A DNA stretch of 64,000 bases from contig OZ260663.1 of assembly GCA_965285935.1 (NCBI GenBank), forward strand, positions 69,192,001 through 69,256,000. The letters run 5' to 3'. Positions 1 to 24,356 of this stretch are shown in pieces. The notes beneath the pieces are model-generated. The model saw nothing but the letters and a program-made list of their open reading frames with translations, ran no database searches and was not told where the DNA came from. Source of the stretch: Ophelia neglecta. Lineage: Eukaryota. The translations under genes were made by a program, and so were the position numbers. Within the stretch, counting starts at the first letter, position 1, and every line of letters starts with the position of its first letter.

Positions 1-1999
1 AAATTGGTTAATTGGTATTAATCATACAAACAGTTGGTTTGTCTATGTTCCAGCCAGACTTATGACAAACTTTTATGTACTTTTAACTTGGGGAGATTGG
101 AACACACCATTGCCACCTATCTCAATCAGACACGTTACCAGAGGAAAAAAAGAAAAAAAAAAGAAAAAAACACTAAAAATGAATAAAAAAAAGTTGGATC
201 ACTGTACGCCTTTGTAGGTATTCAATAACTTGAAATGTACCAGGGAAAAGAAACTGTGATGACAGATTGTCACTAGAAACATCCCAAGGTTACCTTAGAT
301 AGAGATGGCATTTCTTCTAAATACAGATATATCATGTTATATGTTTTATTTTGTGTCGTATATAAATATTTACATGTAGAACAGAAAGTAGGCATCTAAC
401 ATTGGACAGTAATCAGTCTTTTTGAAAGATTGATGCATTAGGTTTTTCTACCAGTTTGGTCTTTATTTCAAAACACTTTCTGCCTTTCATAGTGATAACA
501 TAATACTGTATTGAAGCAGATGTGTTGGGCAGTAGATCTAATATATACAGCTGAAATGCCTTAATTTAAGTATATTTGAAATAGTTGTTGAATATTTAGT
601 ATTTGGTTGCTATTGTGAGACATTTTTCTGAAGTGCAAACACATCATTTGTATTTAGAATGTGTCTTTGTATGTAGTATATCCCATTTAAGAGTATCCTT
701 CCTAGGTTAAAATTTAACCTTGATTGCAGAACATATTCATTGTCTGTTTCATAGAAGCCTTTTGAAAAGCCCAAAGTTTTACTTTCTTATTCTCACCGGA
801 CTGAAGTCATTCCTATTTGCAAATTGGTCACCATCTGATAGTCTTCTATTTCTTTCTTATGTATATATGTGTGTAAAGTAATTTTTCCAAATAATAAAAC
901 TAAGAGCTATATACATGTACATCTGGTAGCTTCAACAGCTTGAAAATCATTTACAGTTGACTAGATTGATTAAAGTTTTAAAAAGATCATATTCTTTGTT
1001 ATTTGTCCTAAACATTAGATATATATCCTTAAAACCTTTATTTACAGCAGGCAGGTCAATGGGACACCCCTGCTTGACATCATTCAGTTACCCTTGCTTG
1101 AGTGCCGCACGGTCATTGCCCAGAGACTATACTTGGTTTTTGGCCATAAACAACTAACACATTGATGTCCAGAAATAATTTTATGTATTTGTTTCTGGGA
1201 CCTTTTGGTGGTTACTTTAAATTACATAACACTCTCACTACTTATAATTACAAATTAGTTATACAGTTACAAATTATAACCACTGTGCTTGTAAACGCGA
1301 TGCAGCAAAAAGTATTAAAAGTTATGGTACAGAAATTGACTGGGTAGAAGTGCCTATACATGGCTATGAATTGATTTCTTTTTGGAGAAATCTTAATAGG
1401 TAAGCTGCCAAGGCAATGAAAATATGACTTAATTTCATATGGGCCCTAATTCCTTACATACACTACCAGGTTAGGCCTTTATTTACTATTGGAAGGGTAC
1501 AGTAAAGTGTATGCCAGCAGGTTGAAAGGTGTAGTCAGATTTGACCCTGGCAGGAAAAGTGCCTGAAAAATGACGAAAACAACCAATGACTGTGACTAAA
1601 GGGCAATACCTGGTCACACAGAAACCACTTGGTTCTATTGACAAGTGTGGGACTGTGTTTTGGGGACCATTATTTAGTTTATTAAATTACTACTATAACT
1701 ATTTGAGCTGTGAAATTTCAATGACTACTCTATTTATATAAAGTGTTATATTGGCAATTGGAAGAGATTTGAAAAGTTGTTGTTATGTTAGACAGCGACT
1801 GGGGGGAAGAGGAATTGAGAAGGGGATGGGGGGGGGACTAAAACAAATTTGACCCTATAAGGTGTTGATCAATTGCCTTTGCAGTAAAAAAAAAGAGAGG
1901 CTGCTTATGTTAAACACTTGCCTAACGGATAACTCGTATAACTCGTATAAGCTGGTCACTGCCTCACATGCTATCCTGACTGACAAATGTAACACTGAC

Positions 2000-2122
2000 A
2001 ATGGCCCTTCATCACAGGTACTTTAAGATGGAAAAGATAGGACATGGGAATTCAAAAACTGTCCTGTCATTGCAGGTGGCCCTTCATCGGAGGGACCCTA
2101 CATCACAGGGACCACTGACTGT
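2000..2122. mobile_element. Partial MITE end, same family as 43777-43860
   Basis: aggtggcccttcatc...ccctacatcacagggaccactgactgta resembles aggtggccctacatcgcagggactactgta at 43831-43860. Confidence 0.6.
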
Positions 2123-7800: not shown

Positions 7801-10800
7801 CTATCTGCTTCTGAGAGAACTTCAATGTCACTTTCAGTATTGGTGTTTGGGATGTTACTTATACCTATGCTAGGACACAGACGCTGGTCAGGTATATTTT
7901 GTGAATGTTCACACCCCAGAAGTTCTTCAGCAATGACTTCCTTAGCAGACTTACTAAGCACTGGCTGAGATTCCTCTATGGGCTTCTCTGGCTTTTCAGT
8001 TTCTTCTGCTTTTGCAAGTGATTGCTTCACTTCTACTTTATCAGACAAACCAGCATTTCTTTCATGGTTCTCGGGTTCACCCAATGTTCCAGGTTGTTCC
8101 ACGTTATCCTTAAAGCATTCCACAATCTCTACATTCTCAGTTTCAATGAGATATTCAATGTCAATTATTCTCTTCTCACATATAAATTGAGAATCTGGAC
8201 ATTGGTCAAATGAGTTTGCTTCTAAGGACCCTGAAGGAGTGACAGCAATTGTTGGGATAGGCTTCTCTCCTGATGATGGTCTTGATAAAGCCCAAGCAAG
8301 CACATCTTCTTCAAGACTGGACCTCGACTTTGGGGAGAGAACCTCATCTTCCTTGATACTTTGATGAATAAATTCCTCTGGCCATGTTTGTTCAGACTCT
8401 AGACCAGGGCTCAGAGCTGCAGCATTTTTCTTTAGAGGTGAGAGCAGGGTTACAGCAGAGTAGGTGGCTAATGCCTCCAGATCTGAACTGTCAACACTTG
8501 TAACAAGAGACTCACTAGTATGTAGCCCGCTGTTTATATTGTCAGACTCACTATCCTCAAAATCATCAAGTACAGATTCTGCTACTGCTATCGCTATAGG
8601 TTGAGGAGGAAGGTGGTCTTGGCTTGCATGTATAATTGCAGCTTTGTCAGTTTCAATTTGTACATCTGGATATGAGCATACCTGATCAATTTGATTGTCA
8701 ATACTTTTCAGTTCAACAAGTTTCTTTTCATTATCAACTTCAGGTTCTTCTGCTATGATTGGGAGGTGGAGAATTGTCCCTGTTTCTAAGGATGTTAAAA
8801 TTCTTAGGCCAGTAAGGTGGTATAGAACAGATGGCAAATCTCCAATGTAATGTCTGTTTACTTCAGTCCAGTCTACTGAAGGTGAGCGTCTGACTGGAAA
8901 AATGGTACCAGTGGAAATTTCTGCATTGACATTGTCCAATTTTGTGGCTTGAAGTTCAGCATTTTGGCTTGTTGAATCCAAGTCCTTGTTTTCCTCTGGC
9001 GTATCAAGGTGGCACTCATCCTCAGGAGCCGTGGGTATTAGCTGGCGGTCTTCTACCACTCTTGCCTCTTTATCTATTAATTCAGGGAATGTTTGAGTAT
9101 CAGGAGTGACAATGACAGGATAATTCGGGACTTCTGTCTTTGAATCATTTTCCACATTTGCAACTGGACATGAAAAATCTGTATCTTCTAGCTTTTCTGA
9201 ATTGTTTGAGGTACCAATGGCATGTCCTGAGATGCCTTGTTCTTTCAAGTCATGATGCATCATATCATCTGATATATCTTCTATACGCTCATGGTCGGCT
9301 CTCTCTCTTGTAAGGATTTCTTCCTCTAATACCCCGTCCTCTTCAGTAATACCCTCACTATTTACTCCATTTTCAATTTGCCCCTTTGTACATGTCTCAT
9401 CTTCTCTCGGTGTTGGAGCCATTTTTAATTTCCCATCAGCACTCTCCTCATTCTGGCTGTCAGGTTTGTAGGCTTCTGATGATTCTTCTTGCAAACCAGG
9501 AACTTCTAGAATATCTGGTGCTGACTTCACAACAGCTTGATAGGATATCATTTCACTATCTGGATCCACCTGTTGCTCTTTTAATGCATGCTTTTCTTCT
9601 TGGTCTGAATCTGAAGCAGCCTCTCCCTTGCTTTTATCTGGGGGCTTGGGTTCGTGGCCCAAGCCTAAAAAATACTGCTGGTCATTTTTTAATTTAGGGT
9701 CTGCTGTTAATTCATCTGACTTGCATGGCTCATGGCACATTTCAGCCTGTAAATCATTGTCTTGCCTGCCTTCACTGGGCTGTTCTGCACCACTCACAGG
9801 GATACTGTCTGTGGGCTTACTCTTCCCGTCACTAGATTCTTTTCCCAAGGCACGCTTTCTCATTCTTCTGTTGCGTCGTCTTCTTAACTTGCCCTCCGAG
9901 GTTTCTTCCGCACTAAGGTTTTCAGCTTTATTTTCTGGCATATTGCAAACAGGCATGGCTATACAAACATCTCCACTTGGATGTGTTTTTGGAGATGTTG
10001 AGGGATCAGAGTAACTTTCCAGCATATTGGGCTCACCTTCAGTTAAATCTTTTACATTGCTAATATTTTCTTGCTGGGGTTCATTGCCCAATTCTAAAAA
10101 ATGCTGTGTAGCTTCTGTAGTGGATGCTTCGTTTGAAGCTATGTTGGGTGCCTTCTTTTTCCTTGTATGTTTTTTCTTTTTCTTGTGTACTTCCGTCGTT
10201 GGAGCTGCCTCTGCTTGACTGTTCTGTTTATTTTCTTCTGTAATAATCACATTCGTGGCACCCATCTGACCTTTTATGCCATCACTCTCAAGGACTTTGG
10301 GCATCTCTGTACACTGGCTGGCATCCCTTACCACTTGGTTGTCTTGATTATTTTTAGCATCATTTGACCCACTGTCGCAGACTGGGTGGCTTTCTTCATG
10401 TATTATGTGAAAGGTTTCTTTTAGTTCTGGATCAAAAGCAGAATCAGTATCTTTCATGCTAGTGTCTGATGCTGAGTGATAATCAGAAATTGTGATTGTA
10501 TCATGCGTTGTTTTTGTTTTTTGTTCAGGTTTTGAAAAGTCTGACTCTGATTGATCTCCCTCTTTCTCCCTCTTTCTAGCCTTTTTATTTCTGCGACGCT
10601 TTTGTTTACTGGTTATGTGACCATCTGTTTCACTCTCCTTGCGAGTGATTGGCGAATCTGAAGTAGTATCTGTAGTACTTGTTATTGATGAGCTCATAGA
10701 TGCTGATTCTTGATCTTTGTCACAACCCGAGACCTCTTCTTCTGCCTTAGTATAAGTAACCTTAGGAGCTAGATCTTTGATGCTACTTTGCTTTTCTGTT

Positions 10801-13800
10801 GGTACTGCAACTTTGTTTGCTTTTGTCACACTTGGTTTCTGATGAACCACTATTGAATCTGGTTTGTCTTGCTCATTATTCAAAACTGTGGTAGGATGGA
10901 CAGATTTTGACTCTGTTGGCAGGATGACTTTATTCTTTTTTGAATCTGCAGCTGTATTCCTTCTGTCAAATAATTCTCTATCTGGGGTACAAGTAGCTTT
11001 GTCTACTCGTTTCTTTTCACCATTCGATCTGATTTCTTCCCTGTCTTTATTTGCAATATCTTTTGATGTCAAATGACTTTCTTTAAGTTCCTTTTCAGGT
11101 GTGCTTTGAGCCAATTTTACGGGCAACTGTTTGGCTTTTTCTGTTCCAGACGACAGTCGATGTTCCTTTGGTTTTTGTTTTTTGCGTTGGCTTCCATGAA
11201 TCAACAAATTTGGTTTCTCTCCCTTTTCTCGAGCTGCTGCTTTGAGGGCCAATATTGCTGCTCTCTTTCTCAACCTTTTCCTCCTCCTACGACGCAATTT
11301 TCCCAAACCATCTCCAGGAGTTTGAGTACCTCTTTCAACAGAACTCCTACATTCAGATGAATCATCTCTATGTGGATAATCATCCATCTCTTCATCTTCA
11401 TCACAACTATCTACCATTTTATTATCAAGATTGCCATCCACTGTTGTTTGTTGTGGCTGGCTTTGTTCAACCAGTTCAACTTTTTTCTCAAGCAATGGAA
11501 GTGTGTCCTCACCAGTAGCAGGTAATACATCAGTTAGTAAAATGCCTGACATAGGTTGCATGACCTCCTCTTCAATCTTATTTTCACTTGGAGTGGTATT
11601 TTCTGGTTCTGGTAAGGTTGATATTTTTGATTTCTCCTGTAATTCTGACTCTACCCTACCCTCTTCTTGTGGTTTAGCAACTTCTGGTATAGGGCACACA
11701 CCCTTCAAATCATTCACTTCTAACATTACAGGGAGCTGCACTTTCTGCTGAGTAGGGAGCAGCTCAATGTTTTTATTGTCTTGCATTTCCTCATAGCACA
11801 TTTCACTGACTTCCACCTCTTCCTTGGACTGGTCTTTGGCCACAATTTCTGCATATGTGGCCATGGACGGGGAAAATTGTTGCTTTTCCTGCGACATTTG
11901 CTCAGATTGGCAGATAACTTCTTTGAAAGTGTCTTGTCCATTCTGGTCCTTTCCATTTAAATCATGTTCAGTCAGGAGAGCAATATCTACTTCCTCTTTT
12001 GGAATAACAGAAGGAATGTCAGGGGTGGGATGTAATGTAAATTCTTCATTAATATTGTTTTCGTTAGGCACTTCTATTTCCAATTCTAGTCCCATCCTTC
12101 CATCGTCTATTGCTGATTCCTTAAGGGTAACACTCTCTACTACGTCTAATTCTTCTTTACTTGTAGCAGGCACATGTTCATGGGGTTCAGGGGTGCCATC
12201 TTGCCTGAAATCTATGCAAGCATGTATAACAGGATCTGCAGCAACTGACTGAGATGCTGTCAATTCTTGTGAATAAGTTTGTGTCACAAAATCACTGTCT
12301 CCTGTCTCACCATTTCCATAAGGAACCTGTTCTGTTGGTTCCATAACATCTTTTTCATAGCCTACAGGGGCTTCCTCTTCCTCATCAGTTTTTTTCTGAA
12401 GGGTTGCAATATGTGAGGTTTTTCCAGGTAAAGATTCATGTAGACATTCAGAAGGCAGAATAATGCCAGGACTGCTTTCATTTCTAATTTCTGAGGATGT
12501 ATTTTCTTGCTCTGGTAAAATGTCTGTTTTGTTGTTTTCATCTAATGCAGTATCACCATCTACTAGCTTGGTCTTTTTTCTCCCTGAGTCATCAATGTCT
12601 TTATCCTCAACTGTATCTGATTCTGTTAATTCTCCGTCTTTTCCCCTTTTCCGTGATTTCTTGTTCCGACGACGCTTCTGTTTACTTGAAAGTTCAGTTT
12701 CTGTATCACCATCTTCCCTGGTAACTAGTAAATCACAAGTATCAGAAGGTTTCTGGTCATTTGCATCAGGCACAGTGTTAACTGCCTCTTTACATACCAG
12801 TGGTGTTTCAACTTCAATTTCTATATTGTCTTGTTCTTCTTCCTGTGATATTATTTGGTCTTCCTTGGGGACAAAGGGTGTCCCTTGAGAATCTTCTGCT
12901 TGTATTTCAAAAGACATTTCTGTACCACTTTCAGAGTTGTTATGGGGATGAGACCGTTCCATTTCCTTTTTCCTAGCTTTTTTATTCCTTCTTCTTTTTT
13001 GTTTACTAGTGAGACTGCTGTCATTTGCATCTTGTGTGTCAGTAATAGGAGACTGGGCTTGTACTGCTGATGTCTTTGGTCTAGGGTCTTCTTGTTCCTC
13101 CAGTTTTTCTATGTCAAACTCATTGATTGAGCTATCTCTTTCAGTTGCCAAAACAGGATGTGGACAGTCTGTGGAATCTGGGACTGCAAGTTCACTGTTG
13201 TCTTGGAGTGTAGTAACTATATCTTCAATAGCAAGTGCTTTAATATCCACTTGGACAGGTTCATCACTAGAAATATTTTCTTTCAGGACAGTATCTGTTA
13301 CTAAAGGTTTCCCATCACCTACATCAACCAAAGTCAAGTCGTCCTCCTGAAAAACTTCAGGAAGATCCTTATTCTCATCTGGTACTAGTCCTTCTGACTT
13401 TGCAGGCATTTCCTCGAGTTTAGGCTGATAAGAAGTTTGGTTATCTGCTTCTTCGATTGCAGATACATATTTGCCTTGGACATTAGGCATTATGTGTTTA
13501 ATGTTTTCAGCTTCAATATCGTACACAGGGTCATCAGTGGGCAAATTATCTTCCCATGTCATGTAGGGTTTGCCACTATCCCCATCATGAAGTAACTCAG
13601 GAACTGCAGACACATTCCCTGACACAATCTTGTCTTGGTCAGGCTTCTCCATTTTTATTTCACCAGGAATTTCTGTTTTTTCCTCATCAACTGTCACAAC
13701 TTGGTCAAATTGTGGTTTTTCGTTTGGTAGATCGTCAGTTACAATTTCTACATCTTTGATTGTTTCATTTGGTGTAGTTGGAGTCCCTTCCATGCTAATT

Positions 13801-16800
13801 GGGGAAGACTCAATTTGGCTATGAATTTCAGGTATAATATTTTCATTGATCTCGCTTTCATCTTCTACATTTTCAGGTAACTGAACTATTTCCTTTTGCT
13901 GTGAACACATTTCTTCCTGAGAAGACTCGTCTGCAAACGTGTTTACTTTGTCTGGATCTTGGCAGGAAGTTTTATAATCTGTGCAATGAACTGCTGATTC
14001 TGTTTGGGGTGGGACTTCAGAAACTATTTCTTCACTGCTTTCTACTTGCATGTCACATTTAACAAATTCACTGTTGGACAAAGTATCTTGTAGATCCTCA
14101 TCTGTCATAACAGGTATACCATCTACATCAAGAAGTACCTCAGGAGCTGCAGACACACTCTCAGACAAAGGCATGTCTTGTTCTGATTCCTTCTGTTTGA
14201 TTTCTTGAGGAACTTCTATTCTTTCTTCTTCCACTACTTCAATGTTGTCATAGGCTGGCTTTTCATCATGGATTATTTCTGCTTCTAATGGTGTGTCTTC
14301 AGCTATTTTAGGTATTGAAGTTGACGTTTCCTCAATGCTTATGGCAGAGGGTTCACTTTGGCTATGGATCACAGGAACAACAATTGCATTGATTCCACTG
14401 GCACTCTCTACATGTTCTGAATCCATAGTTGTAGGCTCATCTATATCATCATCAGTCATAAAAGGTATACCATCATCTATTTCAAAATGTAAGTCCAGAG
14501 GTGCAGACACACTACCAGATGAAGGTGTGTCTTGGTCAGGTTCTTTTTTACCAGAATCTTCTGATCTTTCTTTCTTCACAGTTTCAACATTGTCAAATAC
14601 TGCCTTTTCTTCATGCATGTCTTCAGATTTAATTGCTACATTTCCACTTGTGTTTGGTGGTTCTGTTTCTCTCCCTTCATTTTCTAAATGTGTTGAATCT
14701 TCAAGTGTTGGCTCTTCTATATCATCATCTGTCATAAATGGTATGCCATCATCTACTTCAGGAAGTACAATTGGGTTGTTGGTGGTTGATTCTATGACAG
14801 TATTTAGCGTACTGGTCTCATTTTCGATAATGAAGTCAGGTATATTTTGAAGCTCGGTTATACCGATTTCTTGCTTTGAATGTGTTTCCTCAGGAGCAGA
14901 CTGATCTGCAGCGGAGGTAATTTTGTTAGTATCTTGATTAGAAGTATCGCAGTATGTTTTTGGGTCTACTGATTCAGTATGGTCCTGAACTTGAAAATCT
15001 ACTTCATTGTTTTCTGCTTTACATTTCACAGATTCATCAGAAGACAAAGTATCTTGTAGATCCTCATCTGTCATAAAAGGAATACCATCATCCACATCAA
15101 GAAGTACCTCATGAGCGTCAGACACACATTCAGGCAAAGGCACATCTTGTTCTGATTCCTTCTGGTTTAGTTCATCAGTAACTTCTGTTTTTTCTTCTTC
15201 CTCTATTTCAATGTTTTCAAGTGCTGGCTTTTCATCTTGGATAACTTCCAATTCTATTTTCTCATCTTCTGTTTCTTTAGATAGTGAAGTCAAAGTTTCC
15301 TCGATGCTAATTGGCGAGGACTCACTTTGGCATTGCATCAATGGAACAATATTTTCTTTAATTTCAATAGTATCTTCAACATTTTCTGAATCCATAGTTG
15401 TAGGCTCGTCTTTATCATCATCAGTCATAAAAGGTATACCATCCTCCACATCTAAATTTAATTCTGGATGTACACAAACGTTGCCGGAGACAGATTTTTC
15501 CTTCTCAGGTTCTTTTTCAGCAAGAACTTCTGATCTTTCTTCTTGCACCGCTTCAACATTGTCAAATATTGTCTTTTCTTCCGGCGAGTCTTCAGATTCT
15601 ATTGCTTCATTTCCAATTGATTTTGGTAATGTAGTAACTTTTTTTGTTTCACTCCCTTCATTTTCTAAATGAGTTGAATCTACAAGTGTTGGCTGTTCTA
15701 CATCATCATCAGTCATATATGGTATGCCATCATCTACTTCAGGAAGTACACTAGGGGTGGTGGTGATTGATTCTACGACAGTATCTTGCTGACTTGTCTT
15801 ATTTTCAATACTGAAATCAGGTATATTTTGAAGCTCAGTTATACCTATTCCTTGCTTTGAATGTATTTCCCCAGGAGCAGACTGATCTGTAATGGAACTA
15901 ACTTTGTCGGTATCTTGATTTGAAGTATCATAGTCTGTTTTTGGGTCTACTGATTCAGTATGGTCCTGGACTTGAAAATCTACTTCATTGCTTTCTGCTT
16001 GCATTCCACATTTAACAGATTCATCATTAGACAAAGTTTCTTGTAGATCCTCATCTGTCATAAAGGGTATACCATCATCCACATCAAGAAATGCCTCATG
16101 AGCGTCAGACACACATTCAGGCAAAGGCACATCTTGTTCTGATTCCTTCTGGTTTAGTTCGTCAGTAAGTTCTGCTCTTTCTTCTTCCACTACTTCAATG
16201 TTTTCCAAGGCTGGCTTTTCATCCTGAATAACTTCCAATTCTACTTTCTCATCTTCCGTATTAATAGATAGTGAAGTCAATGTTTCCTCTGTGCTCAGTG
16301 GCGAGAACTCACTTTGACCTTGGATCAATGGAACAATATTTTCTTTAATTTCAATAGTATCTTCAACATTTTCTGAATCCATAGTTGTAGGCTCCTCTAT
16401 ATCATCATCTGTCATAAAAGGTATACCATCATCAACATCAAGAAGTATCTCATGAGCGTCAGACACACATTCATGCAAAGGCATATCGTGTTCCAGTTCC
16501 TTTTGGCTTAGTTCATCAGTAACTTCCGTTTTTTCTTCTTCCACTACTTCAATGTTTTCAAGTGCTGGCTTTTCATCCTGGAAAACTTCCAATTCTATTT
16601 TCTTATCTTCTGTTTCTTTGGAAAGCGAAGTCAATATTTCCTCGGTGCTGTTGGGCGAGGACTCACTTGGCCCTTGGATCACTGGAACAATACTTTCTTT
16701 AATTTCAATAGTATTTTTAACATCTTCTGAATCCATATTTGTAGGCTCGTCTATATCATCATCAGTCATAAAAGGTATACCATCATCCACGTCAAGAAGT

Positions 16801-19800
16801 ACCTCATGAACGTCAGACACACATTCATGCAAAGGCATATCGTGTTCCAGTTCCTTTTGGCTTAGTTCATCAGTAACTTCCGTTTTTTCTTCTTCCACTA
16901 CTTCAATGTTTTCAATAGCTGGCTTTTCATCCTGGAAAACTTCCAATTCTATTTTCTTATCTTCTGTTTCTTTGGAAAGCGAAGTCAATATTTCCTCGGT
17001 GCTGTTGGGCGAGGACTCACTTGGCCCTTGGATCACTGGAACAATACTTTCTTTAATTTCAATAGTATTTTTAACATCTTCTGAATCCATAGTTGTAGGC
17101 TCGTCTATATCATCATCAGTCATAAAAGGTATACCATCATCCACGTCAAAATGTAATTCTGGATGGACTAAAACGTTGCCAGAGACAGATTTTTCTAGCT
17201 CAGGTTCTTTTTCGGCAAGAACATCTGATATTTCTTCTTGCACCGCTTCAACGTTGTCAAATATTGTCTTTGCTTCCTGCAAGTCCTCAGATTCTATTGC
17301 TTCATTTCCAATCGTTTTTGGTACTATGGTCACTTTTTCTGTTTCACTCTCTTCATTTCCTACATGTGTTGAATCTTCAAGTTTTGGCTCTTCTACATCA
17401 TCATCAGTCATAAATGGTATCCCATCATTTACTTCAGGAAGTACACTAGGGGTGGTAGTGATTGATTCTACCACACGATCTTGTGTACTGGTCTCATTTT
17501 CAATAAAGTCAGGGACATTTTGAAGCTCAGTTATACCTATTCCTTGCTTTGAATGTATTTCCCCAGGAGCAGACTGATCTGTAACGGAGCTAACTTTGTC
17601 GGTATCTTGATTTGAAGTATCATAGTCTGTTTTTGGGTCTACTGATTCAGTATGGTCCTGGACTTGAAAATTTACTTCAATGTTTTCTGCATGCATTTCA
17701 CATTTCTCAGATTCATCAGAAGACAAAGTATCTTGTAGATCCTCATCTGTCATAAAAGGAATACCATCATCCACATCAAGAAGTACCTCATGAGCGTCAG
17801 ACACACATTCAGGCAAAGGCACATCTTGTTCTGATTCCTTCTGGTTTAGTTCATCAGTAACTTCTGTTCTTTCTTCTTCCACTACTTCAATGTTTTCAAG
17901 TGCTGGCTTTTCATCCTGGATAATTTCCAATTCTATTTTCTCATCTTCGGTTTCTTTAGATAGTGAAGTCAATATTTCGTTGGTGCTAATTGACAAAGAC
18001 TCACTTTGACCTTGGATCACTGGAACAATACTTTCTTTAATTTCAATAGCATTTTTAACATTTTCTGAATCCATAGTTGTAGGCTCGTCTATATCATCAT
18101 CAGTCATAAAAGGTATACCATCATCCACGTCAAGAAGTACCTCATAAGCGTCAGACACACATTCAGGCAAAGGCACATCTTGTTCTGATTCCTTCTGGTT
18201 TAGTTCATCAGTAACTTCTGTTCTTTCTTCTTCCAATACTTCAATGTTTTCCAGTGCTGGCTTTTCATCCTGGATAACTTCCAATTCTATTTTCTCACCT
18301 TCCATTTCTTTAGATAGTGAAGTCAAAGTTTCCTTGATGCTTATCGGCGAGGACTCACTTTGACCTTGGATCACTGGAACAATATTTTCTTTAATTTCAA
18401 TAGTATTTTTAACATCTTCTGAATCCATAGTTGAAGGCTCGTCTATATCATCATCAGTCATAAAAGGTATACCATCATCCACATCAAAATGTAATTCTGG
18501 ATGTACACAAACGTTGCCAGAGACAGATTTTTCTTGCTCCGGTTCTTTTTCGGCAAGAACATCTGATCTTTCTTCTTGCACCGCTTCAAGATTGTCAAAT
18601 ATTGTCTTTTCTTCCAGCGAGTCTTCAGGTTCTACTGCTTCATTTCTAATCGTTTTTGGTACTGTAGTCACTTTTTCTGTTTCACTCTCTTCATTTTCTA
18701 CATGTGTTGACTCTTCAAGTGTTGGCTCTTCTACATCATCATCAGTCATAAATGGTATCCCATCATTTACTTCAGGAAGTACACTAGGGGTGGTGGTGAC
18801 TGATACTACCACAGTATCTTGCGTTCTGGTCTCATTTTCAATACTGAAGTCAGGTATATTTTGAAGCTCAGTTATATCGATTTCTTGCTTTGAAGGTATT
18901 TCTTCAGGAGCAGACTGATCTGCAACGGAGGTAACTTTGTTGGTATCTTGATTAGGAGTATCACAGTCTGTTTTTGTGTCTACTGATTCAGTATGGTCCT
19001 GGACTTGAAAATCTACTTCATTGTTTTCTGCATGCATTTCACATTTCACAGATTCATCAGAAGACAAAGTATCTTGTAGATCCTCATCTGTCATAAAAGG
19101 AATACCATCATCCACATCAAGAAGTACCTCATGAGCGTCAGACACACATTCAGGCAAAGGCACATCTTGTTCTGATTCCTTCTGGTTTAGTTCATCAGTA
19201 ACTTCTGTTCTTCCTTTTTCCACTACTTCAATGTTTTCCAGGGCTGGCTTTTCATCCTGGATAACTTCCAATTCTATTTTCTCATCTTCCGTTTCTTTAA
19301 ATAGTGAAGTCAAAGTTTCCTCGATGCTAATTGGCGAGGACTCACTTTGACCTTGGACCAATGGAACAATATTTTCTTTAATTTCAATAGTATCTTCAAC
19401 ATTTTCTGAATCCACAGTTGTAGGCTCGTCTATATCTTCATCAGTCATAAAAGGTATACCATCATCCACGTCAAAATTTATTTCTGGATGTACACAAATG
19501 TTGCCGGAGACAGATTTTTCTTGCACAGGTTCTTTTTCAGCAAGAACTTCTGATCTTTCTTCTTGCACCGCTTCAACATTGTCAAATATTGTCTTTTCTT
19601 CCGGCACGTCTTCAGGTTCTATTGCTACATTTCCAATCGTTTTTGATACTGTAGTAACTTTTTCAGTTTCACTCACTTCATTTTCTACATGTGTTGAATC
19701 TTCGGGTGTAGGCTCTTCTATATCATCATCAGTCATAAATGGTATCCCATCATCTACTTCAGGAAGTACACTAGGGGTGGTGGTGATTGATTCTACAACA

Positions 19801-22800
19801 GTATTTTCTTGACTGGTCTCTTTTTCAATATTGACATCAGGGATATTTTGAAGCTCAGGTACACAGACTTCTTCTTTATTTGAAGATATTTCCTCAAGAG
19901 AAGACTGATGTGCAACCGTGCTTACTTCATCTGGCTCTTGACTTGAAGTATCGTAGTCTGTTTTTGGTTGTGGTATTTCAGTTTGATCATTGGCTTGATC
20001 AACTATTTCGTTGCCGGTTTCTGCTAACATGTCACATTTTGCAACAGCATCTGTGGACAAAGTACTTTGTAGATTATCATCTGTCATAAAAGGTATAATA
20101 CCATCATCCACATCAAGAATTGTTTGTTGAACTGCTGTTTCCGTTGGATATTGGACTTCAGGACCTATTTCTTTGCTGTGATCTTCTTCCAGGTCACATT
20201 TAGCAAATTCATCAGTGGACAAATCTTGTTGGTCATCACCAGATATGGTAGTAGATGTCTGCAAAGCAACTGCTTCTGGACTAGACTCCTGTGGCACAAT
20301 GTTATCTGGCACATAACGTTGCTCTGCATCTAATTCTTCTGACTTCGAAGTCACTTCTTCAGAATCAGACTTCACATCAACTGTGATTACTTTGCCTGGA
20401 TCTTGATATAAAATTTCATTGCCAGTTTCTTGGACTGCTGATTTCATCTGGACTTCAGGGACTATGTCTTCACTGATATCAGGAATATCACATTTGTTGA
20501 GCTTATCTGTAGGCACATTAGTTAGAACATCTTGATTTTGGTCATATTTTTTAATAAGAGCCACATCATTATCGACACTTAGGGGTGAAGTGGAAACTGC
20601 TGATGTATTCACTGGAGAAGCATTGTCATTGATTGGTGCACTCTTTACCTCCACATTAAGGTATTTTTGTACCTCAGGGCATAATTCTGTTAAGTCTTCA
20701 TTCTTTGTATCTAATTTTGACAGGTCCTTGGCTTTCCGTCTAGCTTTCTTATTTCGGCGACGCTTTTGTTTACTTGTGAGATTGTCGTCGTTCCCATCCT
20801 CCATACCAATTGCAGACAAGCTTGCTTGTGTTGCAGATGCATTTTGACCACTCTCTTCATGGGCGATGCTATCATGTGCATCACCTTGAACATCTTCTGC
20901 AGGCAACAATTCTTGGTTCAATGGCTCTTGTAAACCAGGCTCCTTTTTCACTGAAGGCTCATCATCATAACTCTGATGTGAAGAAGTAGGCTTGCAAGTT
21001 GTATTTGGAACTGCACATTCCACTTCCTCCTGGACTGCAGGAGCTACACCTTTAGCAATTTTTGTAGCAAAAGTATTTTTGGCGGACTCCTCTATGGTTG
21101 CCTCATTTTCCTGACCATTATCTGTCATAAAATTTATATCATCATCGTCATCCACAACTATTTCATTAGCGGCAGACTCATTCCTAGATAAATCAATTTC
21201 TTGGGTGAGCTGACCAAGGTTTGTTTCAGTTTCTTCTGAAACCTCCATCTTGTCCAAAACAGGCTGCTGTTCAAATATTTCAGGTGTCACCAAAACACCG
21301 TCAGTTTTAACACTAGGTTTAGATTCATTCTGGCTTTGGATTAATGGTTCTTCTTGCATTTCATCCTCAGTAGCTTCTATTTTCTGTTCACTTGGCAATG
21401 TAGGTATAGGACAAGATGCTAACCAAGCAGGAAAATTGTGTATTATAAGGGTTGGAGTGACAGGACATATTAATTCTTCTTGGATTCTTTCACAAGAAGG
21501 CTCATTTCTCGTATCCACTAATGTTTCTGTTGTTGCAGGACATTTGTCTTCTGGAGGCAGTTCATTGAAGCACTGCTGCAGCATTTCACTTTCTGACACA
21601 TTATTTAGTGCCTGTGAATCATTTTGGCATGTTTCTATATTCTGTGCTGTGGCATTGTCTTCTTCATTGATGCATGCCACTAACAGTGCTGATTGGGTTT
21701 GTTTTGATACTGATGCAGAAATTAACTCGTTTTTTTCTGTGACAACTCCTTCAGGATGGTTGTTTTCAACAGGTGTATCAAATGGTTGTGATGTCTCTTT
21801 TTGCATTTGAAAATTAGCCTCTAAGTCATTATTTGACTGGTATGCATTAGAATGAAGAATTGCATTTGTTCTATCTGTTACTGGATTGATTGATTCGTCA
21901 GCCTTTTTACCTATTTCACTTAATGCCCCTCCATAGAGCAGGTGTAGGCCCACAGCATATGTTACACAAGAGGGTACTCCTTCCATCATTGCTGCCTCTA
22001 ATGTGCTGAGAAGTGGTTCACTTTCTATTACGTCATGATCCGACGTATGTGATGTATGTGATAACTCGGTAACTTCAATGGGAACTGATTCTTCACTCAA
22101 ACATTTCTTCTTAAGCTCAAAGGATGTGGATGCTTCTTGACTAATATCTGTTTTTTCTGTGATACATGTATGCTGACCATTAATGGTCACAGGGATGGTA
22201 CTAAGGGCAAAAACTCCTGGCGCATGCTGCACAGCCTTTGGAACATCTTCCATCAGATATTTTTCTGTTGTTTCTTGAGCGCTTTCTTCAGAGCAGGTCT
22301 CAGGAATTTCAGCCGCAACCAAGTCCTCTTGATTAGATACGCAGATTTGGGAACTTGGATTTTCATCGCTTCTATGTGGCTCTCTATGATCTACAGGACC
22401 CCTTTCTTGTATGATGTCTGATTTGAGATTTCCTTTCTCCAAGCAGGTTTCTTGAGTATCTGAAAGTTGATACTGATCTTTATCCTTGACTTTCATCACA
22501 GGGGTTAATTCTCCACATGCACCTTTAGCATTAGCTTCTGACTGATCATAGAAGCCATTCATTCCCACAGGTACATCTTCAAGTACCAGCATTCCTGTTG
22601 AATGAATGACAGATGGAGGAATATCTAACTTGTAACTAGGTTCATCCACGATTTGTATGTTCGGTGTATCCAGCTCAACAACAGCTACAGATGAGTCTCT
22701 TATGCAAGGAGACATAACTGTTGCATCATCTGCTTCTTCTGCCATGGGTTCAGACCTTGTAATGTCAGTCTTCAAGTGTTCATCAATTTGACTTGTTGAG

Positions 22801-24356
22801 AATGTTACAGGAGTATTTGCCATAATCAAGAGGGCAGGGGCATGGCTTACACTTTGGGGTATATCCTGCAACATATGATAGCAGGTTTGTGTTTCCTGAT
22901 TTTCCTTGCCAGACAAACCCAACTCATTTGTACAAGCAGGGTTTGCCAGAATCTCCGGCATGGGAGATGAAGGGAACTGACTTGATTCTTCCTTCATTGC
23001 ATCTTGGGGTGTTTCATTGTCATACTGAGTAATTACTTCTGGCACATTCTCTTCTGTTTCAACTGGAAAAATGTCATGGCAACTTGTGTCCTGGAAAACT
23101 TCAAGCTGGTGCTCAACTGAAGTGGTTTCCATTTCGCTAGTTGGCTCAGGGAAAATGTCCGTTTTGGCATCGGTTAATGTATCATCCATTTCTGCTGGTT
23201 CACTAGGTAATTGCTGTCCCAAACCAGGACTTAATGCATCCACAACCTCACACTCCCAAGAAATATCCTCCTCTACTTCTTTTTCATTAACTGGTTTAAG
23301 GTCAGCTGCTACTTTTGGTGAAAGGATTTCCACTTCAGTATTGCATTGAGTGGGCTCTACTCCAAACTGCTTAACTTGATCAGGATTTGGTTCTCCAAAG
23401 CTTAATTCTGTCTGAGTATCATTTATATTCTCATCATCATCTGCAGGTAAACATTCTGAACTTTTTGGGCTATCTTCTGCACTATCTTCTTTGGATATTG
23501 GTACAGCTTCTTCTGATAAAACATGGGTGGGATTTTCTATTTCACGGTCAATGGTCAAATTTTTATCTTCCTGGGCTAGTTGTTCCTCCTCTGTGTTTCT
23601 GTCTTTGTCCATTGCTGTAACTGTCTCCATGGCAAGGGCAGCAATGGGAGCTAGGAGGGATATACAGGCCATGTCAACCATTTCTTCTTCCATTTCCATC
23701 TGTTTCTTTTCATTTTCAATTCTTAATTTATCCTCAGCTATGAGATCGTCAGCATCTACTATATCATTGCAAAAGAACTCTTCCAGCTCTTCAGCTTCCG
23801 GTACCTTGGAGGGCACAGACACATTCTGAATTGCTTCTAGGTGACGGCTTTGTTCTTCTGCACTACAATAACCGATGTCTAGGCTGTCTGGTGTTTTTAC
23901 ATCATCAGCAGTTACTGGAACTTCTGCGCTTTGTTTATTTACAGCAGGGTGTTCTTCCAAAACTGCAGACAGTGGAATATCATCATGCAAGGGTAACTCT
24001 CTGGGGGGACTTTGATGACAAGATTGTATTGGAGAAGTGTCATTATCACTATCAAGAAATCCGTCAAATACTGGACCTTCAGCATCAAAAGAACCTAAAC
24101 AATTTTCTGTACCTTCATCAGGCTTGTGGTGCTTATCCATACTTAAATCATTGCCTAAACTAAAAGCCGTTGTCCAATCAGGACTTATCTTAACTTCTTC
24201 AACCTCTGACGACTTACAGGGTGACTTTCTTTTACTTGGAGTAAAAGGGCTTCTTCCATGCCATGGTGTATTATCTAGTTCATCATCAGCATCCCATCTA
24301 GCCAGGGCACTGGTATTCCCACTCCCAAGGTATGTCTGGCACTGGGACTTAAATGG
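4806..24356 (-). CDS. Giant 19,551-nt coding exon (6,516 aa; acidic, low-complexity, repeat-rich); probable alternative last exon of TDRKH
   Basis: Stop-free frame of 6,522 codons. The ORF-track 'start' (TTG 24374) lies within a polypyrimidine tract and acceptor (tcatttgttttcctctctccag|CCATTT, phase 0), which matches a phase-0 donor CAG|GTACAA at 26145 in the last core TDRKH exon. All internal repeat spacings are multiples of 3. Coding status is high confidence; linkage to TDRKH is inferred. Confidence 0.85.
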   Translation of the reverse strand, partial: PFKSQCQTYLGSGNTSALARWDADDELDNTPWHGRSPFTPSKRKSPCKSSEVEEVKISPDWTTAFSLGNDLSMDKHHKPDEGTENCLGSFDAEGPVFDGFLDSDNDTSPIQSCHQSPPRELPLHDDIPLSAVLEEHPAVNKQSAEVPVTADDVKTPDSLDIGYCSAEEQSRHLEAIQNVSVPSKVPEAEELEEFFCNDIVDADDLIAEDKLRIENEKKQMEMEEEMVDMACISLLAPIAALAMETVTAMDKDRNTEEEQLAQEDKNLTIDREIENPTHVLSEEAVPISKEDSAEDSPKSSECLPADDDENINDTQTELSFGEPNPDQVKQFGVEPTQCNTEVEILSPKVAADLKPVNEKEVEEDISWECEVVDALSPGLGQQLPSEPAEMDDTLTDAKTDIFPEPTSEMETTSVEHQLEVFQDTSCHDIFPVETEENVPEVITQYDNETPQDAMKEESSQFPSSPMPEILANPACTNELGLSGKENQETQTCYHMLQDIPQSVSHAPALLIMANTPVTFSTSQIDEHLKTDITRSEPMAEEADDATVMSPCIRDSSVAVVELDTPNIQIVDEPSYKLDIPPSVIHSTGMLVLEDVPVGMNGFYDQSEANAKGACGELTPVMKVKDKDQYQLSDTQETCLEKGNLKSDIIQERGPVDHREPHRSDENPSSQICVSNQEDLVAAEIPETCSEESAQETTEKYLMEDVPKAVQHAPGVFALSTIPVTINGQHTCITEKTDISQEASTSFELKKKCLSEESVPIEVTELSHTSHTSDHDVIESEPLLSTLEAAMMEGVPSCVTYAVGLHLLYGGALSEIGKKADESINPVTDRTNAILHSNAYQSNNDLEANFQMQKETSQPFDTPVENNHPEGVVTEKNELISASVSKQTQSALLVACINEEDNATAQNIETCQNDSQALNNVSESEMLQQCFNELPPEDKCPATTETLVDTRNEPSCERIQEELICPVTPTLIIHNFPAWLASCPIPTLPSEQKIEATEDEMQEEPLIQSQNESKPSVKTDGVLVTPEIFEQQPVLDKMEVSEETETNLGQLTQEIDLSRNESAANEIVVDDDDDINFMTDNGQENEATIEESAKNTFATKIAKGVAPAVQEEVECAVPNTTCKPTSSHQSYDDEPSVKKEPGLQEPLNQELLPAEDVQGDAHDSIAHEESGQNASATQASLSAIGMEDGNDDNLTSKQKRRRNKKARRKAKDLSKLDTKNEDLTELCPEVQKYLNVEVKSAPINDNASPVNTSAVSTSPLSVDNDVALIKKYDQNQDVLTNVPTDKLNKCDIPDISEDIVPEVQMKSAVQETGNEILYQDPGKVITVDVKSDSEEVTSKSEELDAEQRYVPDNIVPQESSPEAVALQTSTTISGDDQQDLSTDEFAKCDLEEDHSKEIGPEVQYPTETAVQQTILDVDDGIIPFMTDDNLQSTLSTDAVAKCDMLAETGNEIVDQANDQTEIPQPKTDYDTSSQEPDEVSTVAHQSSLEEISSNKEEVCVPELQNIPDVNIEKETSQENTVVESITTTPSVLPEVDDGIPFMTDDDIEEPTPEDSTHVENEVSETEKVTTVSKTIGNVAIEPEDVPEEKTIFDNVEAVQEERSEVLAEKEPVQEKSVSGNICVHPEINFDVDDGIPFMTDEDIDEPTTVDSENVEDTIEIKENIVPLVQGQSESSPISIEETLTSLFKETEDEKIELEVIQDEKPALENIEVVEKGRTEVTDELNQKESEQDVPLPECVSDAHEVLLDVDDGIPFMTDEDLQDTLSSDESVKCEMHAENNEVDFQVQDHTESVDTKTDCDTPNQDTNKVTSVADQSAPEEIPSKQEIDITELQNIPDFSIENETRTQDTVVVSVTTTPSVLPEVNDGIPFMTDDDVEEPTLEESTHVENEESETEKVTTVPKTIRNEAVEPEDSLEEKTIFDNLEAVQEERSDVLAEKEPEQEKSVSGNVCVHPELHFDVDDGIPFMTDDDIDEPSTMDSEDVKNTIEIKENIVPVIQGQSESSPISIKETLTSLSKEMEGEKIELEVIQDEKPALENIEVLEEERTEVTDELNQKESEQDVPLPECVSDAYEVLLDVDDGIPFMTDDDIDEPTTMDSENVKNAIEIKESIVPVIQGQSESLSISTNEILTSLSKETEDEKIELEIIQDEKPALENIEVVEEERTEVTDELNQKESEQDVPLPECVSDAHEVLLDVDDGIPFMTDEDLQDTLSSDESEKCEMHAENIEVNFQVQDHTESVDPKTDYDTSNQDTDKVSSVTDQSAPGEIHSKQGIGITELQNVPDFIENETSTQDRVVESITTTPSVLPEVNDGIPFMTDDDVEEPKLEDSTHVGNEESETEKVTIVPKTIGNEAIESEDLQEAKTIFDNVEAVQEEISDVLAEKEPELEKSVSGNVLVHPELHFDVDDGIPFMTDDDIDEPTTMDSEDVKNTIEIKESIVPVIQGPSESSPNSTEEILTSLSKETEDKKIELEVFQDEKPAIENIEVVEEEKTEVTDELSQKELEHDMPLHECVSDVHEVLLDVDDGIPFMTDDDIDEPTNMDSEDVKNTIEIKESIVPVIQGPSESSPNSTEEILTSLSKETEDKKIELEVFQDEKPALENIEVVEEEKTEVTDELSQKELEHDMPLHECVSDAHEILLDVDDGIPFMTDDDIEEPTTMDSENVEDTIEIKENIVPLIQGQSEFSPLSTEETLTSLSINTEDEKVELEVIQDEKPALENIEVVEEERAELTDELNQKESEQDVPLPECVSDAHEAFLDVDDGIPFMTDEDLQETLSNDESVKCGMQAESNEVDFQVQDHTESVDPKTDYDTSNQDTDKVSSITDQSAPGEIHSKQGIGITELQNIPDFSIENKTSQQDTVVESITTTPSVLPEVDDGIPYMTDDDVEQPTLVDSTHLENEGSETKKVTTLPKSIGNEAIESEDSPEEKTIFDNVEAVQEERSEVLAEKEPEKEKSVSGNVCVHPELNLDVEDGIPFMTDDDKDEPTTMDSENVEDTIEIKENIVPLMQCQSESSPISIEETLTSLSKETEDEKIELEVIQDEKPALENIEIEEEEKTEVTDELNQKESEQDVPLPECVSDAHEVLLDVDDGIPFMTDEDLQDTLSSDESVKCKAENNEVDFQVQDHTESVDPKTYCDTSNQDTNKITSAADQSAPEETHSKQEIGITELQNIPDFIIENETSTLNTVIESTTNNPIVLPEVDDGIPFMTDDDIEEPTLEDSTHLENEGRETEPPNTSGNVAIKSEDMHEEKAVFDNVETVKKERSEDSGKKEPDQDTPSSGSVSAPLDLHFEIDDGIPFMTDDDIDEPTTMDSEHVESASGINAIVVPVIHSQSEPSAISIEETSTSIPKIAEDTPLEAEIIHDEKPAYDNIEVVEEERIEVPQEIKQKESEQDMPLSESVSAAPEVLLDVDGIPVMTDEDLQDTLSNSEFVKCDMQVESSEEIVSEVPPQTESAVHCTDYKTSCQDPDKVNTFADESSQEEMCSQQKEIVQLPENVEDESEINENIIPEIHSQIESSPISMEGTPTTPNETIKDVEIVTDDLPNEKPQFDQVVTVDEEKTEIPGEIKMEKPDQDKIVSGNVSAVPELLHDGDSGKPYMTWEDNLPTDDPVYDIEAENIKHIMPNVQGKYVSAIEEADNQTSYQPKLEEMPAKSEGLVPDENKDLPEVFQEDDLTLVDVGDGKPLVTDTVLKENISSDEPVQVDIKALAIEDIVTTLQDNSELAVPDSTDCPHPVLATERDSSINEFDIEKLEEQEDPRPKTSAVQAQSPITDTQDANDSSLTSKQKRRRNKKARKKEMERSHPHNNSESGTEMSFEIQAEDSQGTPFVPKEDQIISQEEEQDNIEIEVETPLVCKEAVNTVPDANDQKPSDTCDLLVTREDGDTETELSSKQKRRRNKKSRKRGKDGELTESDTVEDKDIDDSGRKKTKLVDGDTALDENNKTDILPEQENTSSEIRNESSPGIILPSECLHESLPGKTSHIATLQKKTDEEEEAPVGYEKDVMEPTEQVPYGNGETGDSDFVTQTYSQELTASQSVAADPVIHACIDFRQDGTPEPHEHVPATSKEELDVVESVTLKESAIDDGRMGLELEIEVPNENNINEEFTLHPTPDIPSVIPKEEVDIALLTEHDLNGKDQNGQDTFKEVICQSEQMSQEKQQFSPSMATYAEIVAKDQSKEEVEVSEMCYEEMQDNKNIELLPTQQKVQLPVMLEVNDLKGVCPIPEVAKPQEEGRVESELQEKSKISTLPEPENTTPSENKIEEEVMQPMSGILLTDVLPATGEDTLPLLEKKVELVEQSQPQQTTVDGNLDNKMVDSCDEDEEMDDYPHRDDSSECRSSVERGTQTPGDGLGKLRRRRRKRLRKRAAILALKAAAREKGEKPNLLIHGSQRKKQKPKEHRLSSGTEKAKQLPVKLAQSTPEKELKESHLTSKDIANKDREEIRSNGEKKRVDKATCTPDRELFDRRNTAADSKKNKVILPTESKSVHPTTVLNNEQDKPDSIVVHQKPSVTKANKVAVPTEKQSSIKDLAPKVTYTKAEEEVSGCDKDQESASMSSSITSTTDTTSDSPITRKESETDGHITSKQKRRRNKKARKREKEGDQSESDFSKPEQKTKTTHDTITISDYHSASDTSMKDTDSAFDPELKETFHIIHEESHPVCDSGSNDAKNNQDNQVVRDASQCTEMPKVLESDGIKGQMGATNVIITEENKQNSQAEAAPTTEVHKKKKKHTRKKKAPNIASNEASTTEATQHFLELGNEPQQENISNVKDLTEGEPNMLESYSDPSTSPKTHPSGDVCIAMPVCNMPENKAENLSAEETSEGKLRRRRNRRMRKRALGKESSDGKSKPTDSIPVSGAEQPSEGRQDNDLQAEMCHEPCKSDELTADPKLKNDQQYFLGLGHEPKPPDKSKGEAASDSDQEEKHALKEQQVDPDSEMISYQAVVKSAPDILEVPGLQEESSEAYKPDSQNEESADGKLKMAPTPREDETCTKGQIENGVNSEGITEEDGVLEEEILTRERADHERIEDISDDMMHHDLKEQGISGHAIGTSNNSEKLEDTDFSCPVANVENDSKTEVPNYPVIVTPDTQTFPELIDKEARVVEDRQLIPTAPEDECHLDTPEENKDLDSTSQNAELQATKLDNVNAEISTGTIFPVRRSPSVDWTEVNRHYIGDLPSVLYHLTGLRILTSLETGTILHLPIIAEEPEVDNEKKLVELKSIDNQIDQVCSYPDVQIETDKAAIIHASQDHLPPQPIAIAVAESVLDDFEDSESDNINSGLHTSESLVTSVDSSDLEALATYSAVTLLSPLKKNAAALSPGLESEQTWPEEFIHQSIKEDEVLSPKSRSSLEEDVLAWALSRPSSGEKPIPTIAVTPSGSLEANSFDQCPDSQFICEKRIIDIEYLIETENVEIVECFKDNVEQPGTLGEPENHERNAGLSDKVEVKQSLAKAEETEKPEKPIEESQPVLSKSAKEVIAEELLGCEHSQNIPDQRLCPSIGISNIPNTNTESDIEVLSEADSLENLPLDSSDCIGDTQAVPSGDQTLFCLTSDSSDPIFALSTNVTACSTHEITQSLTESEPNEILMSTDSLTAEADLMLQSGHSDFETIEMSDVELAGATEGGCPVSSDEADTGSLAIIPSIVTTFTDLEPPKLQGNNGNPASGDHNHPTHRNTESPSNASGDKPPKDPEDITHSDTNQHGQIALDIPEIDHLASDSFDSTDQEVLGLFQDGQKPESDVGWTPSEELTEDVEGVATREKRSMSADSLGEEYLEGSLDVQTSQTTSQPFVIGRKRKGSETFVSDDSLEEAKGGILAKEDTPVEKVSRPIAMSRRRRKLNESSFSEDSLDDGSKEVETIFRRIDSFDHAQEVEGSVEMQDQQKLVETMELVEPTSTSHFQQSGIEFLLASYKPTNTDEIEYEQMPITERPAVGAVEEDQPPISVARNICSADSEDASIPMVVITTDKSPLPPEVVEMVISGARPPKDIIEPYLKRFEQEEQRKQQKMFEKHFTQQQHVEKESAFSVVTPGSAKKLHGKTSVVGSCPDPVFDINKTEDQVVPGRMSSAEDLNNSENEFPDPVEYADCNKQIFTETKYDLGLTSCAFQQIQTEEVLAVHKVHQPDEDNEEVGLQSEDSNDSAEICPFTADKVMNDYSDPNHPEESQCVKDETEWFEEFRETKVECKQKGIYMAPKQSVTPVFDPTVCNAWAFPKENKATADWPCNFPDITVDMEENLNAEVASDRPDDSYARVVSPELHCVKNENLTEIYYGREEKDSQIGNITEESETRVIQYEEPGQLQKAEIFDQTNLLSSDSSTMDGKSQRKRDLLEYSSEDDMDITLARDQIFQMATGVSPLCNKKYAKEKEEHFLSDDNLGPEMTNKESDKIKVAGSKRKIVGRAAEKKMMEEEKNKLPAEGNTLVSGDDRNPSSRQANASASNDKDNPPLPPKPKSKGRAKKGLLKKPGSKQSEKSVTFEDGDSATSSDASDIYYVDKVDDNDTDTDDDGEYKIKPQFAEKATKL
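14100..20115 (-). repeat. Coding higher-order tandem repeat (units A 339-351 nt, B 276-288 nt, C 351-354 nt), each anchored on DDGIPFMTD(D/E)D
   Basis: Motif anchor (gtcata on + strand) at 20083, 19732, 19444, 19090, 18745, 18457, 18103, 17749, 17407, 17119, 16765, 16411, 16057, 15712, 15424, 15070, 14731, 14455, 14104. Confidence 0.95.

Follow-up and report, generated by a model that had tools for sequence, protein, structure and literature searches.

A 64,000-nucleotide stretch of the genome of Ophelia neglecta (GenBank assembly GCA_965285935.1, contig OZ260663.1, positions 69,192,001 to 69,256,000; hereafter the window, in which all coordinates are counted from its first base) contains a gene of the TDRKH/Papi family, for which we predict an alternative last exon that would extend the protein by an acidic tail of about 6,500 residues. 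Comparable giant isoforms are predicted in other spiralians, and this recurrence is a larger result than the short motif DDGIPFMTD[DE]D, which is repeated in the tail and had been singled out in the original prediction from this DNA. The behavior of its codons supports selection on the motif at the protein level, and the reading that we favor, by a modest margin over even chances, is that the giant, disordered tail of this Papi carries a lineage-specific array for multivalent docking, with about 20 sites for one folded partner.

One frame of the minus strand is free of stops from 24440 to 4806, over 6,544 codons in which about 448 stops would be expected from base composition and the other two frames contain 368 and 836; no other frame in the 64-kb window exceeds 240 codons. 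The encoded sequence is rich in Asp and Glu (23%) and scarce in aromatic residues, and a Pfam scan of the giant exon yielded nothing reaching the cut-off, the weak matches to EFhand_Ca_insen and DUF2810 falling below it. Upstream on the same strand a sequence-based model places ten exons that are bounded by GT-AG and agree in phase, so that the predicted gene comprises (lengths in amino acids, aa):

30978..31071, minus strand: TDRKH exon 1, start codon and hydrophobic stretch, in-frame GT-AG model
30718-30594, 30080-29885 and 29410-29271, minus strand: TDRKH exons 2-4, two KH domains (Pfam KH_1, E 6.6e-5, 2.8e-8 and 2e-10)
28774..28936, minus strand: TDRKH exon 5, linker, from the gene model
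28460-28225, 27990-27818, 27156-27092, 26977-26826 and 26228-26145, minus strand: TDRKH exons 6-10, extended Tudor domain (Pfam TUDOR, E 2.5e-6 and 2.5e-11)
25912..26144, minus strand: predicted end of a short isoform by read-through of exon 10, with a stop after residue 495 and AATAAA at 25920 and 25912
4806..24356, minus strand: predicted giant terminal coding exon, 19,551 base pairs, 6,516 aa, acidic and aromatic-poor, with a phase-0 acceptor

Judged by domain order and phylogeny, the host gene is TDRKH/Papi: two KH domains are followed by one Tudor domain, the protein groups with named TDRKH proteins, and its core is 44-51% identical to lophotrochozoan orthologues. In a tree of 28 cores, drawn open with no outgroup family and with its inner order partly unsettled, it falls among the lophotrochozoan rows (Lingula, Owenia, Patella, Pinctada, Mytilus and others) with support of 90/97. 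It shares with TDRKH/Papi/Tdrd2, a mitochondrial scaffold protein of the PIWI-interacting RNA (piRNA) pathway, an N-terminal hydrophobic stretch, two KH domains and an extended Tudor domain, and the hydrophobic stretch of exon 1 is likely to be the mitochondrial outer-membrane anchor. The difference lies in the tail: the Papi/Tdrkh C-terminal regions described in PMC8938449 have 63-164 residues, that of Bombyx Papi being disordered and phospho-regulated, as against about 6,500 residues and a motif array here.

The donor of exon 10 at 26145 is in phase 0, and the acceptor at 24356, which has the highest pyrimidine richness (0.89) among 15 listed candidates from 24700 to 24150, lies in phase just 84 bases downstream of the point where the giant frame opens. 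Splicing between them would produce a predicted protein of 6,992 aa with no internal stop. Read-through of exon 10, with AATAAA about 170 bases past its stop, predicts in addition a short form of 495 aa made by intronic polyadenylation; on this model the giant frame would serve TDRKH/Papi as an alternative last exon. Contigs from three DNA-like sequencing runs of one sample, which may be the source individual itself, provided a comparison over 1500-14800 of the window. The 40 differences shown out of 162 include 25 in the giant exon, which alter 23 codons (11 synonymously, 12 non-synonymously) and create no stop; the exon has 3 indels, all in frame, and the flank 5, one of them in frame (p 0.14). 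These differences fit a coding exon, with the proviso that they may come from the source individual.

A full HMMER search with the Tudor exon as query returned 275 matches, of which the best 150 were listed, and 36 of 161 proteins passed a filter for matches to the KH exon and the post-Tudor exon. Three of these 36 rows have post-Tudor tails of more than 6,000 aa:

XP_055955914.1: giant TDRKH model of Patella vulgata, 7,595 aa, with a second isoform of 7,645 aa; labelled uncharacterized or unnamed
CAH1789464.1: giant TDRKH model of Owenia fusiformis, 6,880 aa; labelled uncharacterized or unnamed

The remaining tails comprise two of about 1,170 aa (Lingula), seven of 408-681, two of 229-244 and 22 of at most 156 aa; the TDRKH proteins of Pinctada and Mytilus are annotated as short (463 and 519 aa). 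In the database models of Patella, Owenia and Lingula the acidic tail is joined at the same place as in our model. The giant models of Patella and Owenia have the same core as that of Ophelia, a tail of 6,400-7,300 aa with 22-24% Asp/Glu, nested repeats and conserved aromatic-acidic cores, and the giant tails of the three phyla are alike in size, repeat-rich build and charge, which for the greater part of each tail lies at about -60 to -136 per 500 aa. Smaller counterparts occur in fishes: Amia (bowfin) and Polypterus (bichir) have pairs of long and short TDRKH isoforms, which differ by 450-600 aa of Ser-rich and acidic sequence inserted behind the Tudor domain and end in the same last residues. 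No description of a giant Papi was found in the literature searched, whose coverage stopped short of subscription journals and preprint supplements.

The motif array of the Ophelia tail is organized as follows:

13287..21146, minus strand: motif array, 22 copies in 11-codon frames
21146, 20105, 19754, 19466, 19112, 18767, 18479, 18125, 17771, 17429 and 17141, minus strand: first bases of motif copies 1-11
16787, 16433, 16079, 15734, 15446, 15092, 14753, 14477, 14126, 13580 and 13319, minus strand: first bases of motif copies 12-22
14094..20105, minus strand: core higher-order repeat of three unit types, defined by unit order, DNA identities and charge

A loose pattern run over the translation of 24440-4806 recovers 22 copies from 21146 to 13287, the number originally predicted, including every edge copy that had been named. 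Strict counts are 13 for DDGIPFMTD[DE]D and 17 for G[IV]P[FY]MTD[DE]D, or 18 if the IPVMTDED copy is counted. Degenerate copies are found at the edges (DDINFMTD at 21131, GIPVMTDED at 14111, SGKPYMTWED at 13565 and GKPLVTD at 13304), with an additional one, GIIPFMTDDN, at 20090, and the motif Thr is kept in all 22. The predicted spacing of 92-118 aa holds from copy 1 to copy 19 (18 intervals) and breaks down in the outer intervals, which measure 347, 182 and 87 aa. The units are arranged as C A B C A B B C A B B B C A B C A B, with lengths of 92-96 aa (A), 117-118 aa (B) and 113-117 aa (C), and there is a motif at every unit boundary. Units of the same type and equal length are 86-98% alike in DNA. 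Of the three unit types previously held to be distinct, C is indeed unlike the others (spacer z -0.9 to 1.3 against A or B, no detectable likeness), whereas the spacers of A and B are homologous (z 6.6 for protein, 9.5 for DNA). The core repeat has a net charge of -110 to -118 per 500 aa (about -115), and 17 of the 39 Phe residues of the array are located in the motif. A predicted fold of one super-unit, which rests on a weak five-row alignment, is unstructured (mean predicted local distance difference test score, pLDDT, 43.9; predicted template-modelling score 0.13), its pLDDT blocks peaking at the motifs (50-58 against 37-49 elsewhere). A looser form of the motif matches the exon 19 times against 0.1 expected from exon shuffles, the copies being non-independent products of tandem duplication. 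Derivation of the motif from the Tudor exons of the same gene was ruled out (p 0.52-0.66 for protein, 0.26-0.81 for DNA).

The codons of the repeats argue for selection on the motif rather than on the spacers, in agreement with the original prediction, which had proposed comparing their ratios of non-synonymous to synonymous change (dN/dS). This ratio is 0.08 for the motif, from proportions of synonymous (pS) and non-synonymous (pN) differences of 0.32 and 0.033 over 11 codons in 17 copies, and 0.51, 0.62 and 0.74 for the B, C and A spacers (0.64 when pooled); in the seven-codon core of the motif pN drops to 0.007. Only 4 of 11 minimal changes in the motif are non-synonymous as against 75% expected from the spacer rate (binomial p 0.007), and 1 of 7 in the core (p 0.003), while Fisher tests of motif versus spacer give p 0.039 for the 11 codons and p 0.004 for the core. 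To offset the post hoc choice of the motif we ranked all 11-column windows of five aligned C-A-B super-units, and the three motif sites occupied ranks 1-3 (0.93, 0.91 and 0.91; next 0.86; mean 0.72). Between unit types the motif shows pS of 0.35-0.62 with pN of 0.03-0.06, in comparison to a within-type spacer pS of 0.14-0.20, and its Gly, Ile, Pro and Thr codons are specific to unit type. That the codons have diverged between unit types while the residues are kept argues against homogenization at the DNA level. The C spacers, too, have no detectable likeness to those of A and B, yet retain the motif.

The motif was then compared with known classes of short linear motif. CK2 requires only S/T-x-x-D/E, and the ligand of FHA domains is pT-x-x-D; this pattern, with Thr followed by Asp at +3, is present in 19 of the 22 copies, as had been proposed, although such T-x-x-D/E sites are common throughout the acidic exon (135 versus 112 expected). 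The LC3- or Atg8-interacting pattern (LIR/AIM) is aromatic-x-x-L/I/V, and neither a match at the motif Phe nor an extended LIR is present in the array. The clathrin-box and SUMO-interacting-like pattern, L-hydrophobic-x-hydrophobic-D/E, is represented by LLDVD, which precedes only 7 of the 22 copies (7 versus 5.1 expected in the exon). Calcineurin-type and PP2A-B56-type sites are near chance in the giant tail (6 versus 3.2 and 4 versus 2.7 expected).

We also scored the copies as phosphorylated FFAT motifs (phospho-FFAT, ligands of VAP) with the matrix given in Table EV4 of PMC7705450, in which STARD3 scores 2.5; they reach 6.5 or worse because they have Asp at position 5, where a small residue is needed. 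A single phospho-FFAT-like site stands outside the array and is not above chance, being matched by 7% of shuffles:

10464..10484, minus strand: phospho-FFAT-like site DYHSASD, score 1

The comparison with FAM21 of the WASH-retromer system made in the original prediction survives as an analogy only. According to PMC3374753, FAM21 has about 21 Phe-acidic LFa motifs in a disordered tail that act by avidity, and the Ophelia tail likewise has many Phe-acidic copies (22) in a region modelled as unstructured. The motif itself is not of this class, there being no match to L-F-[D/E]3-10-L-F in the array, and the FAM21 motifs, as described there, are each distinct, whereas the Ophelia copies are near-identical products of tandem duplication. 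The SDT repeats of MDC1, CK2 sites read by the FHA domain of NBS1 (PMC2315671), resemble the motif in their repeated Thr, acidic context and Asp at +3; they differ in that the Ophelia motif has invariant hydrophobic residues before the Thr and a presumably cytoplasmic rather than chromatin setting, and no Ser-Asp-Thr-Asp occurs in the array. At the level of gene architecture there is a parallel, on the evidence of PMC7401806, with the giant ankyrins (vertebrate gAnkB and gAnkG, Drosophila Ank2), ordinary scaffold genes enlarged by one very large unstructured repeat-bearing exon, which is 3'-terminal in flies. These belong to another family, and the microtubule-binding repeats of gAnkB are basic; their nearer counterpart in Ophelia is not the acidic motif but a basic one flanking the array:

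9852..20783, minus strand: basic motif family, SKQKRRRNKK at 20783, 13016, 12695 and 10619 and GKLRRRR at 11312 and 9902

The four SKQKRRRNKK and two GKLRRRR copies keep the same residues with divergent codons, and this family may be a second selected motif, binding membrane, RNA, microtubules or the acidic array.

The motif is not shared by the other giant tails. Its presence in orthologous giant exons had been set as a test of the original prediction, and unbiased searches of the Patella, Owenia and Lingula tails failed to find it; these tails cannot be aligned with the Ophelia exon and have motifs of their own. Owenia has ten SDxDLFPDITD-like copies (such as SDFDLFPDITD) with an acidic F-P-x-I-T core, and Patella has seven GLLYFDFGDS-like, DFGD-centred copies, both conserved also where the flanks diverge. 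One conserved partner should keep one motif, and this unlikeness counts against the docking reading that we favor. A loose hydrophobic-P-x-hydrophobic-T-D pattern occurs 19 times here and 9 times in Owenia, with 0.1 expected in each, and not at all in 20 long multi-Tudor controls; we regard it as a lead only. A single motif common to the giant orthologues is not supported by the profile scan and shuffled-query tests. The seven Patella repeats (residues ~2300-4560) are each followed by a likely beta-hairpin, and their first part resembles the strand LYFVDFGDS of the protein's own Tudor cage (shuffled-query p 0.002, picked by eye). The Patella tail further has 10 matches to hydrophobic-x-F-G against 1.8 expected, a pattern of G3BP ligands that the same repeats also fit. 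The Lingula tail has two PP2A-B56-type sites against 0.2 expected, and a similar LPIIAEE occurs once in the Ophelia giant exon.

Searches with the array and the motif were uniformly negative and individually weak. Word-indexed searches found nothing for the array among 4,485 candidates of 3,583-11,403 aa, and nothing for the Tudor exon, in longer mode, among 71, the index having missed the orthologues found by HMMER. Alignment of the motif to 1,455 proteins of 75-2,000 aa gave no match at E up to 10, a degenerate DNA pattern of it found none in metagenome contigs, PDB sequences gave none and the ESM Atlas no usable match. A complex prediction that paired the motif with a substitute KH-KH-Tudor core, made without alignments, scored 0.00 and speaks neither for nor against binding.

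Based on these observations we propose that unequal crossing-over of a ~330-aa C-A-B unit, together with extra duplications of B, enlarged the array, as the unit order and identities suggest. The N-terminal anchor would hold the KH-KH-Tudor core on the mitochondrial surface, as expected for the family, and the polyanionic tail would reach into the cytoplasm over a distance that a rough polymer estimate puts on the order of 100 nm. Each unit would present a hydrophobic I-P-F-M plug with acidic flanks, of a kind that could fit a basic groove containing a hydrophobic pocket, and such weak sites could sum by avidity in the manner of FAM21, with CK2 phosphorylation of the invariant Thr tuning affinity. 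The most likely purpose would be to gather or space nuage and piRNA factors around mitochondria; that the partner itself belongs to the piRNA/nuage machinery we consider about half as probable as the docking array.

Several results weigh against the docking proposal. A profile of the motif performs no better than shuffles on the Patella, Owenia and Lingula tails, the shuffled-query test in the giant orthologue tails gives p 0.17-0.67, and BLAST of the giant exon against nine long orthologues detects no likeness at E up to 1. The pattern common to Owenia was picked post hoc by eye and fails the shuffled-query test (p 0.17 at best). The selection tests draw on 11 changes in related copies, and on 2-4 within one unit type; the Asp codons of the motif are all GAT, which fits loss of CpG (observed/expected 0.28) but also homogenization of the DNA; and the edge copies have decayed. 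Finally, the contrast of in-frame indels between exon and flank, drawn from the 40 differences shown out of 162 and possibly from the source individual, is not significant (p 0.14).

Among the alternatives, it is improbable, though less so than the others, that the tail serves chiefly to hold mitochondria or granules at a distance, as a polyanionic spacer or brush. On this view no dedicated reader exists, and the motif would be kept only as a target of CK2 or as a sticker for weak self-association. The tails of the three phyla do share size, charge and repeat-rich build rather than sequence, and the scarcity of aromatics, with nearly half of the array Phe in the motif, has the layout of stickers and spacers. 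However, the requirement of CK2, S/T-x-x-D/E, leaves seven near-invariant residues, including G-I-P-F-M, unexplained, given the core pN cited above, and a sticker should tolerate hydrophobic exchange. We see less in favor of the motif as a passenger without protein function of its own, namely a recombination junction homogenized at the DNA level. Placement of all unit boundaries at the motif, mixed codon variants in copies 3, 12, 13 and 17, invariant Asp codons, near-neutral spacers and decayed edges would all be accommodated, but conversion would have erased the type-specific Gly, Ile, Pro and Thr codons, and the Owenia and Patella repeats likewise keep a core amid unrelated flanks. Quite unlikely is an intramolecular mimic of RNA, in which the motif would sit on the KH or Tudor surfaces of its own protein and hold back precursor binding until phosphorylated, in the manner of an enlarged Bombyx auxiliary domain. 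An acidic peptide with one aromatic can fill a single-strand-binding groove, and the motif resembles the DDDIPF of the bacterial SSB tail; against this, ~20 copies far exceed the need of two KH domains per core, the KH domains have been retained across phyla and the motif has not, and added negative charge in Bombyx activates RNA binding (PMC8938449). Least probable of all, despite a junction modelled from sequence, the stop and polyadenylation signals of exon 10 itself and the short annotations in Pinctada and Mytilus, is that the giant frame is a separate or rarely expressed gene outside TDRKH, as it opens immediately before an in-phase acceptor and has its equivalent attached at the same place in three other genera.

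The window contains several further features. A thioredoxin and PITH domain gene, TXNL1-like, lies at 46968-53093 on the plus strand, divergent from TDRKH, and beside its start ends a long inverted repeat (45216-46943) with arms of ~400 bases, 221 bases being 100% complementary, and ~900 bases between them, which looks like a young foldback element or one of the miniature inverted-repeat transposable type. Around 2000-2120 lies a very high-copy short interspersed repeat, with a summed contig depth of 40,000-107,000 compared to 10-50 nearby, and 54379-54694 is a tandem repeat of 2.8 copies of a 114-base unit. Fragments at 57497-58566 and 34594-34929 (both plus strand) have no match in Pfam and resemble ORF1 and reverse-transcriptase ends of retrotransposons lacking long terminal repeats. 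Exon-like pieces at 59663-62261 on the minus strand, again without a Pfam match, contain a region rich in cysteine and a transmembrane segment with CCYK after it, and look Shisa-like.

Work on Papi/TDRKH in flies, silkworm and mice has dealt with a protein of 500-630 residues. The giant form predicted for three spiralian lineages exceeds that length more than tenfold and would, if real, be a candidate for a long-range scaffold from mitochondria to nuage. A more far-reaching proposal, which we advance only tentatively and consider rather less likely than the docking array, is that the lophotrochozoan giant isoform (0.75-0.85 MDa, made by a switch to one huge last exon) arose from an ancient optional post-Tudor insert still present in bowfin and bichir, and serves as a multivalent scaffold, anchored on mitochondria, for building or spacing intermitochondrial cement and nuage, each lineage re-evolving its own hydrophobic-Pro-x-hydrophobic-Thr-Asp array for a partner that is possibly fast-evolving; it would be the 'giant ankyrin' of the piRNA pathway. 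The switch between long and short isoforms is testable, with the smaller counterpart of the two fishes at hand, and the array offers a clean bait, a single peptide selected about 20 times over. Even if the motif has no reader, it would still show that giant exons recurrently build lineage-specific motif arrays.

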